64,000 nucleotides of DNA from Eledone cirrhosa (lineage: Eukaryota): NCBI GenBank assembly GCA_964016885.1, contig OZ024751.1:15190001-15254000 (forward strand). Direction: 5' to 3'. This document shows, piece by piece, positions 11,141 to 21,424 of the stretch. The position numbers and the translations under genes are program-made. The notes under the pieces were generated by a model. The model saw only the letters and a program-made list of their open reading frames with translations. It did no database searches and was not told the DNA's origin. Each line of letters begins with the position of its first letter. Positions within the stretch are counted from its first letter, which is position 1.

Positions 11141-12543
11141 CTGTAACCTTTGAAATGCATGCAGGACAAGAATAGAAAAAATTTGACACAATAGTATTGA
11201 ACCTAGAATAGAATATATCCTAAGCAGCAGGGTCAGCCTGCCCAGTATTGGCCTCTTCAGCCACCAACACTCCTGCAACAGATGTGGACAGCCAGATGAC
11301 CAAGTTTTCAGTGGAATCCCAGAAGATTACTGATACCACAATTACTGCAAACTCATTATGGAATCAATCAATATTATCTTTGTCTGGTCTTCCATGCTGA
11401 CTCCAACCCTTTTAGTTGTGTCTTATGATAAATACATAGTAAAAAATACAGCCTGATATGGATCCAACACTTTTAGTCGTCTAATGACAAATAAACAGTG
11501 AAAAATCAGGTCTTACATGACTCCAATACTTTTAGTTGTGTCTAATGACAAATTATTAATGAAAGGTCAGGTCTTACGAAAATACAATGCCTTGCTAAAC
11601 TGCCCAAAGGTTAAAAAACAGTTGAAGGCAAATAGGAAACAAATCAGTTATGAATTCAAGTTAATACTTGAGTTGAAAAAGGGAATAGAAAAACAAAGGT
11701 GATGATTTAGATATCAGAAAACTAGTTTCACCAATAACTTTAATATAGACACACGAGACAAGTTGATTCTACTATAGCCTTAGGTTGACCAATATCCTGT
11801 CAATAAATTTGGTAGACAAAAATTGTAAGGAAGTCTGCCATACATTATATATATATGTTGGTGATCTACATGATAAACACACCCAGGACACGCTGTCAAG
11901 TGGGTGATAGAAAATGCATCCAGCCATAGAAAGCTGGCCAAACAAAGAGTTGGGAGGAACCCGACCCTTTAGTTGTTGTGTCAAGGACATGACAACCTCC
12001 CTAGTGATGGTAACCTACAAAATAAAAACACCCAGTACATGCTGTAAAGTGATTGGTGTTAGGAAGGGCATCCAGCCATAGAACGCTTGAGAGGACCCTT
12101 CATTTCGCGTCAAAAGACAACTTCTCTGCACTCAATAGAATGTATGACTGTACGTAAGTAGTCTCACTTCAGTACTGACTTGGTCTATGTAGACAAGTCC
12201 AACTCCCACTAGAAGAGAAGGTGAATGTTAAATGATGATGATGATATACACACATTATATATATACGTGTGTCTTACTTTATATCGATAGTGTTTAAAGC
12301 AAGCATTCCAGTTTGACTAAGATAAGCAGTATATACCATACTTAAGATAAAGTATGGGTTAGCATCAGGTTCTAGACAAACTATCTAAAAATTAAAAAGA
12401 GAAAAAAGCTACATCCAACCCATGCCAGCATGAAAAAGTGAATATAAAAAAAATAAAGATGATAATGAAATAATACAGGACAGAGAAGATCACATTGAAT
12501 AGAAACAAATCTTCCCATTGTTATTTAAAAGAGACACTAGCAT

Positions 12544-12836
12544 TTTATTGTCATTTTCTGATTTATATTTTAATATAAAAAAAATAAACAAACATCTCCA
12601 GAAAGTTGAGGAAGAAGAAAAAAAAAAGTGAAATGGAGAGAGAAACATAAAATCTGTAGATGAATACTGGTTAAAATGTTGTGAGTTAAGTTCAATCTTT
12701 TCCTCCCCAACCACCCACCCACACAATGAAGAATGTAAAATGAGAATCCACCGTCGGATGGTGCAATGACGATGGCGTTAATGCTGCTTACCATTCCATC
12801 TGGTAGCAAAGCTTGGCAGAAATTTGACGGTTTATT
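12544..12836 (-). terminator. Candidate SNF poly(A) signals (proximal AATAAA 12836-12831, distal AATAAA 12549-12544)
   Basis: Two canonical hexamers downstream of the stop codon, with U/GU-rich sequence nearby. Which one is used cannot be seen from the sequence. Confidence 0.45.
12748..12775 (-). promoter_or_regulatory. U1 stem-loop II-like hairpin (U1A/SNF binding site) in the SNF 3'UTR
   Basis: mRNA sense CCAUCGUC-AUUGCACCAUCC-GACGGUGG: 8-bp stem (one U-G pair), C-G closing pair, loop beginning AUUGCAC. Confidence 0.75.
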
Positions 12837-12877
12837 TTGAATGCCTTACTGAAATGCACCATATTTTCGTTTCTGCC

Positions 12878-13037
12878 CTACTTCTTAGCAAATGTGATTT
12901 TCATTGCATTGTTTGGAGTGATCTTGAAGCCTTGTAGTGCATCCTTTGCTGCACCGGCCTGCATCTCATTTTCAAACTCAACAAAGGCAATATCATGTCG
13001 ACCAGGCACCAAACGAACTTCTTTAAAACCAGGAAAT
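12878..13037 (-). CDS. SNRPA: SNF/U1A terminal coding exon ([21 protein letters not shown]...MKITFAKK*)
   Basis: Long polypyrimidine-TAG acceptor; TAG stop at 12880-12878; conserved RRM2 C-terminus. Confidence 0.97.
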
Positions 13038-16000
13038 CTAAAAGAAAAAAAAAAGAGAAAAGAAATCCATAAGAACTAGTTAAAAAAAATCTGTCTTTTT
13101 CACCTACATATTCCAGCGGGTCCAGTTAGAAGCAACTGTCTCCAATTGATCCGTCATGGATGTAGTATAGTCAACTATACCACAGTGGTACCCACATGTA
13201 AGTGGGGAGATTGGACTGTTGACAAATGTCTTGATCATTGACAATACTTCACCACACTGTGGTACCTACTTACAACCAAGTAGACTGGACTGTTGACAGT
13301 TAAATGTCTTTACTATACAGTGGTACCTACAACCTACTAGACTGGACTGTTGACAGTTAAATGTCTTTACTATGCTGTGGTACCTACTTACAACCGGGTG
13401 AACTGGATTGTTGATAGTTAAATGTCTTTACTAAACTAAAATCTGTCTCCTTCGCCCATTTATTCCAGCAGGTCCTGCCAGAAGCAACTGTCTTCAATTG
13501 ATCCGGCTGGACCCCCAAGCGGTTGGTTTTTCCCATAAAATCTGTCCCAGTCTCTTCAGCTGTATCAAAGACATGACAATCTCCCAAGTGCTGGTGCCAC
13601 AATACAACAAACTAGATAGAGTGTGGGATGATATGTAAGCGAAATATAGGCCACCTGGGACATCTGAGAGGCCAGTAGCTCCACTTGAGGACTGACTTGG
13701 TTTGTGAAAACCTGTCCAACCCTTGTTAGTAGGAAGGTGAATGTATGATGATGATAGATCTTTGTTATCGATGTCCTCACCCCCATCATATATCTGATCC
13801 TATTCTGAATAATGGAGACAGTTGGTGCTTATAAGGTGCCACTATTTCAGATAGCTTTGAGAGCGGTGGATTGGCAGTATCGGTAGAGGGTGGGACGCCA
13901 TGCTTTGCACCATAGAGTTACGTCTCTTTATGATCTAAGTTCAAATCCCATCGAGGTTAACTTTGCCTTTCAACCTTATGGGGTCGATAAAATAAAGTAC
14001 CAGTCGAACACTGGGGTCGATAAAATAAAGTACCGGTCACACACTGGGGTCGATTTAATTGACTTTCCCCTCCCTCCAAATTACTGGCCTATATAAGAAA
14101 CCACTATTTCAGATAGCTTTCCCCACAGTAAGAATTCAGCCAGGTATCGTAAGCCACTGAAACACTGCCACTTACTACAGTAAATTATACCACACTGTGG
14201 TACCTACTTACAGGCAAATAGACTGAGCTGCAGACAGTTATGGATGCAGTACAGTGAACTATTGACAGTTATATGTTTTTACCACATTGTGATACCTACT
14301 TACAACCAAGTAGACTGGACTGCTGATAGTTAAAGGTCTTTACTATACTGTGGTACCTACTTACAGCTAGGTGGACTGGGCTATTAACAGATGCCTTGGT
14401 CATTGACACAGTACTTTACAATACAGTGGTACCTACTTACAGCTGGGTGGACTGGGCTAGTAACAGTTTTAGTGTTAGTCATGGATATAATACAGTGGAC
14501 TCTGCCGTGGAGTGGAACCTACTTCCAGCTAGATTGACTGGACTGTTGACAGTCAAGTGTCATGTCCACCAAGATATGAACCAATAACTTCTCATCAGGT
14601 TATCTATTACCCCTCTGTCACCCATTACAAATACACAAGTTGAGACTTACTGATTAAACAACATGGACAACATCATTTCTGTGGTTTCTTCTGGAAGATT
14701 TGTTAAGAACAGAATTTGATTTGGAGGTTGCTCTGGAATGGTATTTGGTGCTGCCATATTTGTAGGATCTGAAATAGAGAATATGGTGGATTAATTACTA
14801 ATGTTAAGACTTTTGTTCTTACTATATCAAGCAGTAAACTAATAAATATAAATATATATATTCAAAATTAATCAGAGGAGAAGCAACTAACACTCTATCG
14901 CAATGCTTATTTGCTGGAAATAATTTTTGAATAGTCTGCTACTTCCTAGAGCTGGCATTTAAATCTTATATATTTATCTCTACGCTCCTTCAAGATTTGA
15001 TTATATTCTTCCACTTTTGATATATATATATCATCATTGTATGTTTCATGAAAGAAAAAATAAGCATAAGAGGAATCAGAAGTAGTGTGCAAAAGAAAAG
15101 ACAGCATTGGTATGGATCACTGGGTGAAGAAGTGCCAAGAAATCTGCAGTAGAGGAAGGCCAAGGAAGATCTGGACAGAGGTGGTGAGAGCTGATATCAA
15201 ATCGATGAAATTCAGTGGAGAGATGCTGTGCTGAAAAAGACCCATCAAAACCAGGCAAGTGTGGGAAAAAATGAACATAAAAATAATGATGATGATGATA
15301 TTGTATTGTTCTGTTTTTTTTTTTTATTCCTCAGTTACGAGTTATGAGATACAAGATTCTAGAGGTTAGAGGTTATAAGTCACAGATTGACAACACCCAG
15401 TAAATAGTAAAAATATACTGAATTATACCATTTCACATCAGACTAGTTTTTTAGTGTAGCTTAGTGAATGTTAGCATGAGTGCATAAATACAACATGCTA
15501 TGAACAGACTGACAATAAAACAAAGTAGTTCCATTCAACATTTACAGAACTGTGCTGACTAAGAGACTGCACTACTGTGATGATAAAACAAAGGTTTCAT
15601 CTGAATAAAATATTTAATATGATGATGACTGATATGATATTATGTATGAGCACATATAAGCGAGATGCAGACTCCTTCTCCAGCCTATCTTGGAGGTCAG
15701 TAACCCTACTTCAGCACTGACTTGGTCTATGTAGACCTGTTCAACTAACAGGGAAAGCAGACGTTAAACGATGATGATTATTATACAAATTACAGACCAT
15801 GGTCTATTCAGATAACACAGAATAGAACATGAATCAATTACTTTTCTAATTAATTATATTAATTCTGTTTATTATCGTTCTGTAGGCAATAATGGAGGAG
15901 TTTAAGACCGGCTGCCCACGGGAACTCCTGTATGCTGATGACCTAATACTTATATTATTTATTTTGAGAACAATAACTTAACAACAGTATGAGTGGCCAG

Positions 16001-19000
16001 TTATGGCTGTTTTGAACAGAAAGAGGTGAGAGAATTCTGTCCGGATACAGTCGGTTTAAATGATGATAAATAGAAATGTCAATCTTAGTTGCAGTTGCAC
16101 TCCACCTCTGGTCTATAAAGAAGTTTTCCAAGAGTAGGCTGATTATGAAGGAGTGATGCTGGAGCTGTGAAATCTTGTATGCATCAATTTCAACTCTTCT
16201 TATTAATAACTGCATTGTTTCTTTCCAGGGACTAAGTTGAAAAATAAACCTCATCTGTTAAGCTGACCCTCGTAAACACTATCTGTTCATTACAGCTCAT
16301 TAGGAATATTTCAGCTCCAACCCTTTCCCCTCAGTCAGCATAGATTAATTAATAGTCATTATATAACAACCTCTCAATACACAGTGTAACGGGATTAGTG
16401 ATAAGAAAACCTGCCAAACAAAAGGTTGGAAGGACTCTTCAGCTATGTCAAAGACATGACAACCTCCTTAGTACTGGTGATCTACATGATAAACACACCC
16501 AGTACACTTTGTAAAGAAGGTATCCAACTGTAGAAAATCTGCCAAACAGAGGGTCAGGAGGACTGTTCAGGTGTGTCAAAGACATGACAACCTCCCAAGA
16601 GTGTGGAAATATATGCGAGCAAAATGTAGGCCTCCAGCCCACCTGAGAGTGCATGAAAGACAAACAATCACTTACTTTGAACAACCGGTTGCTGTAACTG
16701 TTGTAGTACTGGTTGTTGAGGAACAGGTTGACCAGCCATTGCTGATATTGGTTGAATAGGAGGTGGTACAACACCAGCTGCCTGGGCTCTGAAACGCAAA
16801 CAAACATAAATTACAGCATTAACCCTTTAGCAATTCACCTCAATTTGTCAAATGTCATATTTATCTGTTCACATTATTTTCAGTTAATCGTACTCAAGAG
16901 GGTTATCAATTTTATTTGTTTGTAATTTTCTTAATTTTCTATGTGCAGGCTTGAAATTTTGTCAGTAGATGTTTAAATATCAATAATTTACAATTATATA
17001 ATTTTACCTGATTTTTTTGGTTAATTTGACTTTTATGGACAGGTGAAATTAATTAATAGGGGCCTTTGAAGTATCAACCAGGTGCAAATACTGGTTTAAT
17101 ATTAAATACGTTGTTTTTGGCATAATACTTGATATATAAGCATCACTAAACCTTATATCAGTGCTCCAGTAATTCCATAGTCTTGGAAATTGTTTTATAC
17201 CGAACATAATATTTACGGTAAAAAGTCCTTGCAATTCCGCAGCATCTGTTGGTCGCCATAACAGATCGGGTTTTCCTCGATTTGAAATCTGTTCTTGGGC
17301 ATATCGATTAATCTCTTCTGCCACAATTTCGAAGAAAGTTTGTGGTAAAAAGAAAAAGAAATAATCCAGTGCTTTAGTATCGGGAGCTAATGCGTGTTGT
17401 GGACCAGTATTTTGAATAAAATCGGGAACATATATTGGTGTGGTATTTTTCAACCACGTTGCTGTAATATTTTCAATGGCGTCCTGGAGATCTCCTTCGT
17501 TTTCACTTTCAAAACAACAATCATCGTCGGATGAAATTTCAGAAATGTAAACATCTGATTCATTTGAAGATAAATCACTAATATTATCTTTTGTTTCTTG
17601 TTTATTTTTAATATTGTCGTGTGTAAAACCTTCAAAGTCGGTATCGCTACTTTCATAAGCCATGTTGATACAAATAAAAAATCTGTTCTACTTTCAACGT
17701 TAGTGTGGGTGTTATTGGCCGGTTTCGGGCGGATTGAACAAATGAAGAGGAAATAATTACGGCCGGTTTGAACACTAAAGGGTTAAATTCAACATTCAAT
17801 GATGCTACTAATTAGAGCTGTAAACTATATCCTTGGCGGCTTTTGAATATTAAATATATACTATAAACGCTATGAGAAGGAGAGGTCAGATCTAATATAT
17901 AGATATATAGGAGGAGGTTGACTTTAAAATATATAATAATATAAGCCCTATGACAGAGAGGTCAAATCTAATATATAGGAGGCTGGTTTTAAAATATATA
18001 ATATAAACACTATGACAGAGAGGTCAGATTTGATATACAGATATACAGATGGAGGTGGACTTTAAAATATATAATATAAACACTATGACTGACTTTGCAG
18101 CTGCCTGTTGGGATGCTCCTTTCTTGCGTTTCTTATTTTCTGGTTCATCTTCCTTCTTCTTCTTTGGTCTTTCTACATAAGTGCCTTTCATCTTAGCAAT
18201 GATGTCAGAATCTTTCTTGGAATATTGAATTCTCTGGAAAAACAAATAAAAAATCAACATCATTGTTATTTAATGTCCATATTATCTGCTAGCAAGGTTT
18301 GGACATGTATCACAAACTGGTCAGTACTCACGTGGAGCCATGGAATCCTAGGTGAGCCCAGGGCGCAACATACAGTCCATCCTACGCTCTACTGTGTGCA
18401 TGTTATTGTGGCACCAACACCACGCAAGTTGTAATATCTTTAGCACAGCTGAAGAATCTTCCAAACCCTTTGTTTGGAAGTTTTCTACAGCAGGATGCAA
18501 TTCCTATTACCAACAACTTTACAGAGTATATTTGTTGCATTTATCATATAGATCACCATGTTTATGACAAAATTGAAGAATCCTCCTTTGGTAGGCTTTC
18601 TACAGTCAGATCCCCTTTATATCACCAACCACTTTACATTTAAAAAATTAGATTCATCAATTTTTAAAATCAGGGACACATTCCAGTTTGATAAGAAAAG
18701 TTAAAATATGCAGAATAGGGCTTTTTAAAGGTAGGACAAATATTAGGAGTCTCATAAAGAAGAGCAAACCAACACCACAAAGTCTTTAAGCATTCAGTTA
18801 GCATATTTCCATTTGTATATATTAACTCTTTCATTAGTATATTTCTAATGAAAGACACTGCTATTAGTTTTCAAATCATTTTGAAAATAATCAAGTATTT
18901 GGAGGAATTTAGTAATATAACTAACTTTTTCATTATTCAGTTGTGTTGTTTGGAACATATCTTAAAAGCTTTTGCATAAAATTATGTTGGATGATTTTCA

Positions 19001-21424
19001 GATAAATATAAATACTTTGAACTAAACAGCTCAGTATCATAGAATCAGTTTAGCATCCTAAGAGTTAAAGAACTGTTTGAATCTACCAATATATAGTAAC
19101 TGGGTTGTCTGTTGTGTTCTTGAGCAAAACACTTCACTTCACGTTACTCCAGTACACTCAGCTGAAAATGAGCACCAGCAATAACTGGCGTCCTGTCCAA
19201 GGAGGAGTCTTGTACTCTGTCACTTAATGCCATAGAAACTGAGGTAAGCACTGAACTGATAAGCCTCCGGACTTGAGACGGACTTTGGACTTTTTTTTTA
19301 GAATATACATATATTTAGACCAAGAAAAACCTGGCAGAGGTGGTGAGAGCTGACCTCAAATCGCTGAGACTCACAAAGGAGTTAACAAAGCAACATGACA
19401 AGTGAAGACATGCTGTGATGAGAAAGACCCATACAACCCATGCAAGCATGGAAACAAACTTTAAAATGATAATGAGATGATATGGTAAACATTCACATGC
19501 AGGAATTTGAAAAATAAAACATGGAATGTCAATCTTACCATTGGTTTATCATAGAATGGGAAACCTTGCATTGATCTGAGAGCATTTGTGGCACTGTTGA
19601 TGTCTTTAAAAATCACAAAAGCCTGTCCTCGACATTTCAAAGTTTTTAGAGCAACTATGTCAAGAATTTGACCAAATTGAGAAAAAATTGCATATAAAGA
19701 TTTCTTTAATTCTGGAAAAGAGACAGAAATAAAAAGATGTTAAATACAGATGGTAATTACAAAGTGATTATAAAGGTGTTTACAGAATAAACGAAGAGTC
19801 AAGAGATTAGATATAGATCAAGGCTTACAGAAACAGCCCATGTTCATCAAGGTAGAACGGATGAGCTTGAAGGGAGGCTGTGCTAGAAAGGACCTGTCCA
19901 ACCCATACCAACATAGAAAAGATATACAAAGGATGATGATGATCTCACCATCATATTTTTGACAACTTTTCTATGCTGGCATTGGTTTGAACAGAACTTA
20001 TAAAGGCAATGCCTTACAGTTAGATGTCATTCCTAACATTACCCTTTAAGTCACTTTTAACATGTAGGGATGCAGTGCATTTATTCTAAACCAGATACAA
20101 ACAGCTATTTTATTATAATCTTCATAGTATAGAGTTTGATCACTCGTTTACCAAGTGGGGGGGTAGAACTCGTCATCAGATTCCATTGCTGATACTATCT
20201 ACCAGTCACAACTCATCATCATAATTGTTTAACCGGTGGATTGGCAGTGTCGGTAGAGGGTCGGACGCCATGCTTTGACGTATATAGTTACGGCCCTTGC
20301 CATTCTGAGTTCAAATCCCGCCGAGGTTAACTTTGCCTTTCATCCTTACAGGGTCGATAAAATAAAGTACCAGTAATGTACTGGGTAATTACTGGCCTTG
20401 TGCAAAACGTAGAAACAATTATTGTTTAACCCTTTAGCATTCACATTACTCTATATTTACTATTATATTTTCATGGTAAAGGCTTTACCTCACATAATAT
20501 CGAATCTATGAGATTTTGAAAGTATTTATTTTGAGAACAATACCTTAACATCAGTTTCAGTGACCAGTTACAACCAGTTTCAAGAGAAAAAGGTAGAGAA
20601 TTCTGGCCGGTTTGAACATTAAAGGGTTAACGTCCATCTTCCACGCTATGATGGGCTGTCCCTTTGTGAAAGATCAGGTTGGGGGACCGTGATTTGCTCA
20701 CACAGAACTGATTTTTTAGCTTGTTTTCTACAGCTGGATGGCCTTCCTAACGCCAACCACATTTACAGTGTACTTCAAAACTCATAGTAATCCAAAGGCT
20801 GTAGGGTGGCTATAATAGGAGTCATGCAATAACTATTCACAGCTTAGAGCAGGCATGTCAAATATGTGGCCCGCACAAAGGTTTTTACAGTGCGAGCATG
20901 TCTTATCTTCGTAATATAAAACGAAAAAATGTGTTGTGCGCAATTAGTTGACATGTGTGGTCCTCAGACAACACGTGGCCCTCAATTTGATATGCCTGAC
21001 TTATGAGTATAGGAGCTGCAAAAGTGTATCTAGTCTGTCATTGGGGCCCTGTCAATGATCAATTATAACAAGATATATGTTGTTATGGCTCACACATGCA
21101 CAAGTTTTATCAGCCTCCTATGAGGTTGCATTTCAGTGTTTTTAATGATGGAAACCCCAGTCATCTTATCTGATTCTCTGACAGTTCTGCCAGTCCAGAA
21201 GGATGAATGATAAAATTGATCTTGGCAAGATTTAAACTCAGATTGCAGAGAACCAGAACAAACGCTATACAGCATTAAATGCAATTCTCTAATGACTGTC
21301 AATTTGTCACCTGTAAAGATATTTAGTAGATTTTGTCTATTTCAAAACTAGTCAACTTACCATCTTTCTTAATACTTTCATTTAAATTGTTAATATAAAT
21401 CGTGTGGTTTGGTCTGATGTCCAT
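12878..21424 (-). CDS. SNRPA: U1 snRNP A / U2B'' (SNF-type) two-RRM spliceosomal protein; complement(join(12878..13037,14651..14768,16676..16788,18094..18233,19539..19711,21361..21424)), 255 aa
   Basis: Hand-spliced translation [56 protein letters not shown]...[47 protein letters not shown]...FAKK* matches the U1A/U2B''/SNF family. All introns are GT-AG and the exons total 768 nt in frame. Confidence 0.97.
13170..14560. repeat. ~60-bp minisatellite in two blocks (13170-13430, 14170-14560) in SNF intron 5
   Basis: GTGGTACCTACTTACAACCAAGTAGACTGGACTGTTGACAGTTAAATGTCTTTAC repeated. Confidence 0.8.
14651..14768 (-). CDS. SNRPA: SNF/U1A coding exon 5 ([32 protein letters not shown]2 start)
   Basis: tttcAG acceptor, CA|GTAAGT donor; conserved RRM2 N-terminus. 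Confidence 0.96.
16676..16788 (-). CDS. SNRPA: SNF/U1A coding exon 4 (Pro/Gln-rich linker [13 protein letters not shown]...QQPVVQ)
   Basis: tttcAG acceptor, A|GTAAGT donor; phases fit both neighbours. Confidence 0.9.
16823..17782 (-). mobile_element. Internally deleted piggyBac DNA transposon in SNF intron 3
   Basis: TTAA duplications (16819-22, 17783-86), CCCTTTAG/CTAAAGGG termini, and a piggyBac transposase N-terminal ORF inside. Confidence 0.9.
17049..17663 (-). pseudogene. Truncated piggyBac (PGBD-like) transposase ORF, 204 aa, lacking the DDD catalytic region
   Basis: Acidic N-terminus, then [45 protein letters not shown], the typical PGBD N-terminal block. Confidence 0.8.
17840..18090. 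repeat. ~65-bp tandem repeat abutting the SNF exon 3 donor
   Basis: TTTAAAATATATAATATAAACACTATGACAGAGAGGTCAGAT repeated ~4 times. Confidence 0.75.
18094..18233 (-). CDS. SNRPA: SNF/U1A coding exon 3 ([18 protein letters not shown], basic linker)
   Basis: Within ORF 18024..18263; tttccAG acceptor, AA|GTCAGT donor (phase 2) matches the next exon. Confidence 0.93.
19539..19711 (-). CDS. SNRPA: SNF/U1A coding exon 2 (RRM1 core, [31 protein letters not shown]...PFYDKPM)
   Basis: ttttccAG acceptor, ATG|GTAAG donor, RNP1 motif RGQAFVIF. Confidence 0.97.
20430..20626. mobile_element. piggyBac-type MITE
   Basis: TTAA TSDs, CCCTTTAG...TAAAGGG termini. Confidence 0.85.
20850..20998. mobile_element. 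hAT-type MITE
   Basis: CAGGCATGTCAAA / TTTGATATGCCTG TIR with internal GTGGCCC repeats; diverged ~8-bp TSD. Confidence 0.6.
21361..21424 (-). CDS. SNRPA: SNF/U1A coding exon 1 ([24 protein letters not shown]2)
   Basis: ATG at 21424, 12 nt after a polypyrimidine-CAG acceptor (exon begins 21436); ends G|GTAAGT, phase 1. Confidence 0.95.

Follow-up and report, generated by a model that had tools for sequence, protein, structure and literature searches.

Among the described cases in which a spliceosomal protein limits its own expression, the well-established feedback of vertebrate U1A is among those closest to the locus analyzed here. As set out in review passages on the work of Boelens 1993 and Guan 2007, it uses a 3'UTR element, the PIE, that binds two U1A molecules, together with an upstream U1 site. 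In the parts of this literature drawn on here, the PIE lies just upstream of the poly(A) signal, and in humans two U1A molecules are required. RNA structure represses the U1 site in mammalian U1A, and under the U1i rule the inhibition of polyadenylation takes at least eight accessible bases complementary to U1 (both from sections of PMC2367729). In tetrapods, the RNPC3/65K gene has, ahead of its poly(A) signal, a U1 site that is suboptimal and conserved and that suppresses cleavage and splices to the next (amylase) locus, as excerpts of PMC5473595 describe. The EJC 50-nt rule, as given in part of PMC6173133, places a junction at least 50 nt past the stop codon for NMD.

Outside jawed vertebrates, a single SNF protein serves both the U1 and the U2 snRNPs (passages of PMC5992148), and a VALKT loop is of the U2B''/ancestral type (passages of PMC4114683). 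In the portions of these two papers that deal with SNF, a loop that starts with AUUGCAC and a C-G closing pair are the features of a high-affinity target, and the word "polyadenylation" is absent. The literature searched, mostly papers outside subscription and without their supplements, contained no description of hairpins in invertebrate SNF 3'UTRs.

The window analyzed here is a 64,000-nt stretch of octopod DNA, and the gene and 3'UTR motifs described below lie on its minus strand. A U1A/U2B''/SNF gene of six coding exons, all placed by tblastn of named octopod proteins, runs from 21424 to 12878. The upstream five exons (14650..21424) encode RRM1 with the VALKT loop, the linker and the start of RRM2, while the coding part of the last exon (12878..13037) supplies the end of RRM2 and closes with the stop TAG at 12880-12878. 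The C-terminal 52 residues match Pfam RRM_1, have human U1A and U2B'' as their best PDB sequence matches and are 100% identical to an O. sinensis protein named U1A. As the VALKT loop is of ancestral type and a single SNF is found outside jawed vertebrates, SNF is a fair name for the gene. The octopod linker after RRM1 is basic and diverges from primate U1A past a shared start; in U1A, the segment that inhibits poly(A) polymerase sits after RRM1. The last intron (about 14450-13240) holds several degenerate copies of a unit of roughly 60 nt.

The initial annotation had proposed a five-part switch in the 3'UTR of this gene, in the mRNA order stop, AATAAA, donor, hairpin, GU tract, U-rich tract and second AATAAA, and every one of these motifs is indeed present where it was placed and in that order. 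The proximal AATAAA, a candidate poly(A) signal, occupies 12831..12836. It is followed by a 5' splice-site (U1) sequence, ATG/GTAAGC (12786..12794, GT at 12791). The GT lies 86 nt past the stop, and the end of GTAAGC lies 10 nt ahead of the stem of the hairpin (12748..12775); the donor stands 16 nt upstream of the hairpin and 242 nt upstream of the distal poly(A) signal. Beyond the hairpin come a GU/G-rich tract (12700..12726, with a TTGTGTGGGTGG tract at 12726-12715), a U-rich/pyrimidine tract (12578..12642) and a distal poly(A) signal block (12542..12584) with ATTAAA at 12574-12569 and AATAAA at 12549-12544. The distance from the hairpin end (12748) to the distal AATAAA (12549) is 198 nt. 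The ATTAAA at 12574 was absent from the initial annotation, as was a second GTAAG at 12849, which scores 5/9 against the donor consensus.

Short motifs of this kind are frequent, with AATAAA found once per ~600 nt and GTAAG once per ~1230 nt on the minus strand of the window, and the folding energy of the hairpin alone is unremarkable (z of -0.01 in 66 nt). The order of the motifs is therefore not beyond chance when taken by itself, and the layout needed outside evidence. Rfam gave no match in the whole window at gathering score, and the six matches within 12300-13100 were at chance level, with none to the U1A PIE at gathering score or at E up to 10. Further downstream, 12468-12402 is a dispersed repeat, since many unrelated contigs match there in all four of the assembled runs described below.

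The hairpin is predicted to fold with an 8-bp stem, a C-G closing pair and a 12-nt loop starting with AUUGCAC, which is thereby single-stranded in the 3'UTR of a U1A-family gene. From its fold, its conservation and the loop match it is a predicted SNF site and a mimic of U1 stem-loop II. It is the only such site in 12877-12398, where two sites with one mismatch are not AUUG(C/U)AC. Including the GU tract in the folded sequence lowers the probability of the hairpin stem from 0.99 to between 0.01 and 0.61, depending on context. The GU tract (12729-12702) is able to pair with both loop and stem, giving an alternative, species-specific fold that would hide AUUGCAC. The hairpin is very likely a selected SNF site, and in all likelihood SNF binds it; negative feedback on SNF through the hairpin is probable, its direction being set by analogy with U1A.

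The donor scores 7/9 against the consensus, within the range of the gene's own donors (6-8 of 9), and the energy of its U1 duplex equals that of intron 2. Matched by hand to that consensus, it offers six continuous base pairs to U1. The site itself is paired within a predicted stem-loop, likewise absent from the initial annotation, at 12785..12808 (5' arm 12808-12801, 7-nt loop, 3' arm 12793-12785, one bulge), six pairs of which form with a probability of 0.76-0.99 in all six folding contexts. An equally good local fold was found at 7 of the 275 donor-like sites of the window, using a like-placed 27-nt folding window whose size was picked after the stem had been seen. Two changes in related species fall within the stem-loop and, checked by hand, preserve it, the one at 12804 turning an A-U pair into G-U and the one at 12798 lying in the loop. 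Position 12804, opposite the U of the donor GU, is A in the window and G in the probable-RNA contigs of the three relatives; the change may be genomic or may reflect A-to-I editing within this stem. With six pairs in a predicted buried site, the donor falls short of the eight accessible bases of the U1i rule and by that rule would be a poor stand-alone polyadenylation inhibitor. The same two properties speak for a splice donor that is dampened rather than for an inhibitor acting by itself.

Conservation was assessed over 12275-13110 in four of the 22 assembled runs listed, one from the organism itself (X22) and three from other organisms (X3, X14 and X15). All four consist of contigs, taken as RNA by guess or by size and as spliced from their sizes; 12275-12489, which the X22 contig leaves uncovered, was kept out of the evidence. 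A core block at 12724..12797, made up of the donor, the spacer, the hairpin and 24 nt beyond, differs at 1 of 74 positions across the three relatives. The corresponding figures are 14 of 80 for the UTR at 12798-12877 (13 substitutions and one deletion, with insertions uncounted) and 13 of 156 for the coding exon. The resulting contrasts (Fisher P of 6e-4 against the upstream UTR and 0.04 against the coding exon) are optimistic, the edges of the block having been set post hoc. Eleven indel rows lie outside the alignment view, and the core block is gap-free in X3 and X15.

Within the core block, both ATG/GTAAGC and the hairpin are unchanged in all three relatives, and the donor bases with their 10-nt spacer are nearly invariant in cephalopods. 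Loss of GUAAGC in orthologues, which the initial annotation would have counted against its proposal, did not occur, and the hairpin is conserved alongside. The GTAAG at 12849 is broken in all three relatives and, given its low score as well, was rejected as a functional donor. The proximal AATAAA is the same in all three, an invariance that chance could well produce (P about 0.3). Past 12724 none of the three relatives aligns, and the GU and U-rich tracts are unalignable; the GU tract was accordingly rejected as a conserved downstream element. X14 and X15 realign from 12584, X15 only partly, and X14 shows two differences in the 43 nt of 12584-12542. The joints between 12584 and 12724/5 listed for X14 and X15 were rejected as introns, as these are replacements by other letters, the U-rich tract included. 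The X14 contig ends at 12542, 2 nt past the distal AATAAA, and the X22 contig reaches 12490. On this alignment, what is conserved is the donor-hairpin block together with the block of the distal signal, and not the GU or U-rich tracts; the 3'UTR is probably left unspliced in the productive mRNA, which would end near 12544 at the distal AATAAA block. The five-part switch is thus partly supported: its donor, hairpin and distal block are retained, its GU and U-rich tracts are not, and no contig breaks in the expected cleavage zone of the proximal AATAAA.

A more distant relative is represented by P0004, a gene call reading through the stop, whose peptide spells the identical hairpin in frame. By back-translation only, a donor-compatible N-G-K stands three codons ahead of the hairpin and about 25 nt past the stop, and no codon pair between the stop and N-G-K is able to hold AATAAA. 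The spacer and the upstream UTR differ, yet the donor-compatible triplet still precedes the hairpin. Here, then, the proposed switch keeps its donor and hairpin and has no room for its proximal AATAAA. The distance from stop to junction, 86 nt in the window, is about 108-114 nt in X3, X14 and X15 (from record lengths).

As a check, the initial annotation had proposed a search of RNA-seq for junctions starting at 12791. None of the four runs shows a joint from 12791 within 12275-13110 or a used acceptor in 12275-12790, contigs being prone to drop rare forms. X22 and X14 (two of four runs) pass the donor unbroken in one contig. In X3 and X15, the contig on the coding side stops at 12792, immediately ahead of GT, its 28 loose end letters aligning to 12819-12792, and the next contig, which bears the hairpin, overlaps it by 30 nt at lower depth (37.8 falling to 18.1, and 35.8 to 25.7). 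In a 31-mer graph this overlap signifies a fork, which therefore sits at G/GT in two organisms from two studies. Splicing to an acceptor outside 12275-13110 would give such a fork, and a poly(A) tail at 12792 could do so too. The search for junctions has thus yielded contig breaks at the donor in place of joints. A piece at 12384-12278 is exon-like, with a strong pyrimidine tract and TAG at 12387-12385 and AAA/GTAAGA at 12277; no joint to it was seen in the four runs.

A further sign comes from the O. vulgaris model P0122, annotated as LRRC49, in which a complete SNF is fused to LRRC49 through W-N-E-M-V.... An 8-nt piece at 12799-12792, lying between an AG and the donor GT, would give W, N and the opening base of E; across both strands of the window (128 kb) this AG/8-nt/GT pattern is found a single time. 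An exon of 8 nt makes it probable that a junction hint at the donor guided the predictor. P0122 is likely a mis-model built on read-through splicing; alternatively, it could be an ab initio artefact of gene modelling. LRRC49 and the P0122 linker peptide are both absent from the window. SNF and LRRC49 records are found on contigs of equal size in O. sinensis, and likewise in O. bimaculoides. Two protein searches for further read-through or fusion proteins gave P0004 itself and O. bimaculoides LRRC49, and nothing else. The contig forks and P0122 are indirect signs of donor use, and we consider real splicing at the donor somewhat more likely than not. The NMD-inducing 3'UTR intron of the initial annotation is well placed with respect to the stop; as no acceptor appears in 12275-12790, the evidence points to one, if any, further downstream than 12275.

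The hairpin is not confined to the octopod. A scan of metagenome contigs gave 303 confirmed SNF-family loci, the best 80 of which, together with the window, form 61 clusters at 90% identity over the last coding stretch. Within 1 kb past the stop (42.6 kb in total), these best 80 of 303 contain 70 ATTGCA(C/G) sites. Of these, 36 lie on the 5' side of a loop with a stem of at least 5 bp, and hairpins are borne by 20 of the 61 clusters, or by 19 of 60 when the window is set aside. The antisense control gave 3 sites and no hairpin, 45.9 kb of upstream sequence 5 and 0, and its antisense 6 and 0, while shuffled 3' sequences held 4.6 motif sites. A stem of at least 5 bp is present at 33 of the 67 fully flanked sites, against 4.6 +/- 2.0 (maximum 13 in 2000) when flanks are swapped between clusters. 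The motif is preceded by C at 59 of these 67 sites, and all 15 examples with a ten-base loop have a C-G closing pair on stems of differing sequence. Judged by best hits and a quick, unfinished tree, hairpin carriers in this set include gastropod-, bryozoan- and annelid-related loci and one further clade. Among the same best 80 of 303, 41 of 61 clusters are without such a hairpin and 29 of 60 without the motif in the sequence examined, many UTRs being incomplete.

The arrangement around these hairpins varies. In other animals they lie 26 to 975 nt from the stop with no fixed spacing to a poly(A) signal; AATAAA follows the last hairpin in 9 of the 19 other clusters and precedes the first in 3. 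Of the 19, 4 have a donor scoring at least 7/9 in the 40 nt that precede the first hairpin, where 2.2 would be expected (P 0.16), and the pairing of donor and hairpin was consequently rejected as a general invertebrate rule. Several individual loci deserve mention. L003 and L022 carry five AUUGCAC hairpins each, and L006 and L065 three, on differing stems within the first 400 nt after the stop. In six clusters (L007, L013, L054, L064, L072 and L076) an identical 5-bp stem surrounds a 10-nt AUUGCAC loop, 26-213 nt past the stop. In L026, whose best hits are bivalves, the stretch 748-962 nt past the stop holds in turn a full two-loop element of PIE geometry (AUUGCAC and AUUGUAC), a donor scoring 7/9 that stands 24 nt ahead of a hairpin of SLII type, and a poly(A) hexamer. 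A less strict two-loop arrangement is present in L080. The 3'UTRs of L017, L033 and L066 each contain three or four AUUGCAC inside larger conserved stems in place of simple hairpins, possibly as internal-loop sites. Rfam, run on 15 of the 80 loci, returned two matches at chance level.

Taken together, these results lead us to propose that the terminal exon of the presumed single octopod U1A/U2B'' gene houses a module for negative feedback. In the productive mRNA the 3'UTR would stay unspliced and end at the distal AATAAA block. The hairpin, copying U1 stem-loop II, would capture SNF from outside the U1 and U2 snRNPs, and the donor would be a real but dampened U1 site folded into a stem of its own. 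An excess of free SNF would occupy the hairpin, and SNF and U1 snRNP together would weaken terminal-exon definition and distal 3' processing. Transcription would then read through, and the donor would be spliced to a downstream acceptor, possibly in the neighboring LRRC49. Over 50 nt would separate this junction from the stop in the read-through RNA, for which degradation or retention would be expected. The 86-nt distance agrees with the 50-nt rule, compared with about 25 nt in the P0004 relative. That SNF drives the read-through route, and that NMD follows, we infer. The feedback reading is supported by the core block being more conserved than the coding exon, by family hairpins that follow the stop in 19 of 60 clusters and are missing from the controls, and by the fit of the RNPC3/65K precedent, the X3/X15 fork and P0122. 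It is weakened by the lack of a visible junction or acceptor and by a single SNF site lying 198 nt from the distal signal; SNF bound 16 nt from the donor could equally block U1. The most likely account in our view, at a little under an even chance, is that a surplus of SNF acts with U1 at the donor and shifts the terminal exon away from 3' processing, towards read-through and splicing at 12791.

The alternatives differ mainly in what they make of the donor. In a vertebrate-like scheme, SNF and U1 snRNP would inhibit distal polyadenylation, the RNA would be destroyed in the nucleus and the GT would never be spliced. The order of U1 site, U1A site and poly(A) signal is that of mammalian U1A, whose U1 site is structure-repressed too, and the absence of a seen junction, the two unbroken runs and the tendency of AATAAA to follow the hairpins of other clusters all fit. 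We nevertheless think this unlikely, as it leaves the exact-boundary contig break in two organisms and the P0122 junction unexplained, relies on a buried six-pair site where U1i takes eight accessible bases, and has one protein site, far from the signal. A switch between poly(A) sites, the first proposal of the initial annotation, would instead have the proximal AATAAA produce a short mRNA lacking the hairpin, with downstream U1 and SNF deciding the outcome and the 12792 fork marking a tail. Binding of U1 or U1A downstream can suppress a poly(A) signal, as in the HIV-1 and IgM cases, the proximal AATAAA is unchanged in the three relatives, and both the drop in depth across the fork and a tail starting with a letter other than G would agree. 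Cleavage usually takes place 10-30 nt after the hexamer, however, and 12792 is 38-39 nt past it; a single break at a G/GT boundary is a splicing signature; the hexamer's invariance is not beyond chance; the GU tract, as the supposed downstream element, is 105 nt off and unconserved; and the P0004 relative is, by back-translation, without the proximal AATAAA. This makes the poly(A)-site switch distinctly improbable.

About as unlikely, to our mind, is that the hairpin acts on the mature mRNA (in translation, export or stability) next to a separate or cryptic donor conserved through its stem. In this species and in other animals, mRNA-like contigs retain hairpins; these lie at widely differing distances from the stop, have no fixed distance to the poly(A) signal and are not generally paired with a donor, all of which this explanation accommodates. 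It does not account for the near invariance of donor bases and spacer in cephalopods, or for the donor-compatible triplet before the P0004 hairpin despite the differing spacer and upstream UTR. That short motifs have come together by chance in an AT-rich UTR, without any regulatory function, draws on the frequency of such motifs, a folding z near 0 and the unconserved GU and U-rich tracts. For the hairpin it is largely refuted by conservation above that of the coding exon and by strand- and region-specific enrichment in the gene family, and as an account of the locus it is very improbable indeed.

By analogy with vertebrates, the invertebrate SNF hairpins suggest a self-limiting feedback so far described, in the literature searched, for vertebrate U1A alone. 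We tentatively propose, as a view that may well prove wrong, that self-limitation of U1A was not a vertebrate invention: mimics of U1 stem-loop II would occur singly, in arrays of up to five and, in one bivalve-like locus, as a two-loop PIE, and in cephalopods a hairpin would be wired to a stem-hidden donor as a splice-out kill switch involving the neighboring gene. If true, the feedback would date to the single ancestral protein, before the U1A/U2B'' duplication, and would show how a PIE could arise from simpler hairpins, with short elements that can be tested, also in model invertebrates. The 74-nt octopod element would then tie protein sensing to the choice between splicing and 3'-end formation, and the fused SNF-LRRC49 gene model would be a regulatory by-product.

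Several known systems share features with the octopod module. [quoted passage not shown] The 3'UTR-intron NMD feedback of RNA-binding proteins, as outlined in part of PMC6173133, likewise has a junction site more than 50 nt past the stop; in the octopod no local acceptor was found, and the P0004 relative, at about 25 nt, would need further junctions downstream. With RNPC3 (U11/U12-65K) the module has in common a suboptimal, conserved 3'UTR donor in the gene of a spliceosomal protein, set between 3' processing and splicing. The RNPC3 sensor is the U11/U12 snRNP on a tandem splice enhancer, with an alternative 3' splice site, as opposed to the proposed own-protein hairpin by the donor, and the donor-to-poly(A) signal distance is about 100 nt there versus 242 nt in the octopod (excerpts of PMC5473595 for RNPC3).

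The fullest resemblance is to vertebrate U1A, as far as the portions of that literature used here describe it: the gene family, the 3'UTR position, AUUGCAC, an upstream 5' splice-site sequence, a U1 site dampened by RNA structure (predicted in the octopod) and a downstream poly(A) signal are all common to both. The vertebrate PIE has two internal loops and lies just upstream of its signal, where the octopod has one free hairpin 198 nt away; in addition, the octopod donor is non-consensus and shows signs of real splicing, and its host is an unduplicated SNF serving U1 and U2. With one site that is not beside the signal and without an Rfam match, the octopod element was rejected as a PIE. Our best reading, argued by analogy, is that the octopod module would work like vertebrate U1A feedback, yet through an element that is not a PIE.
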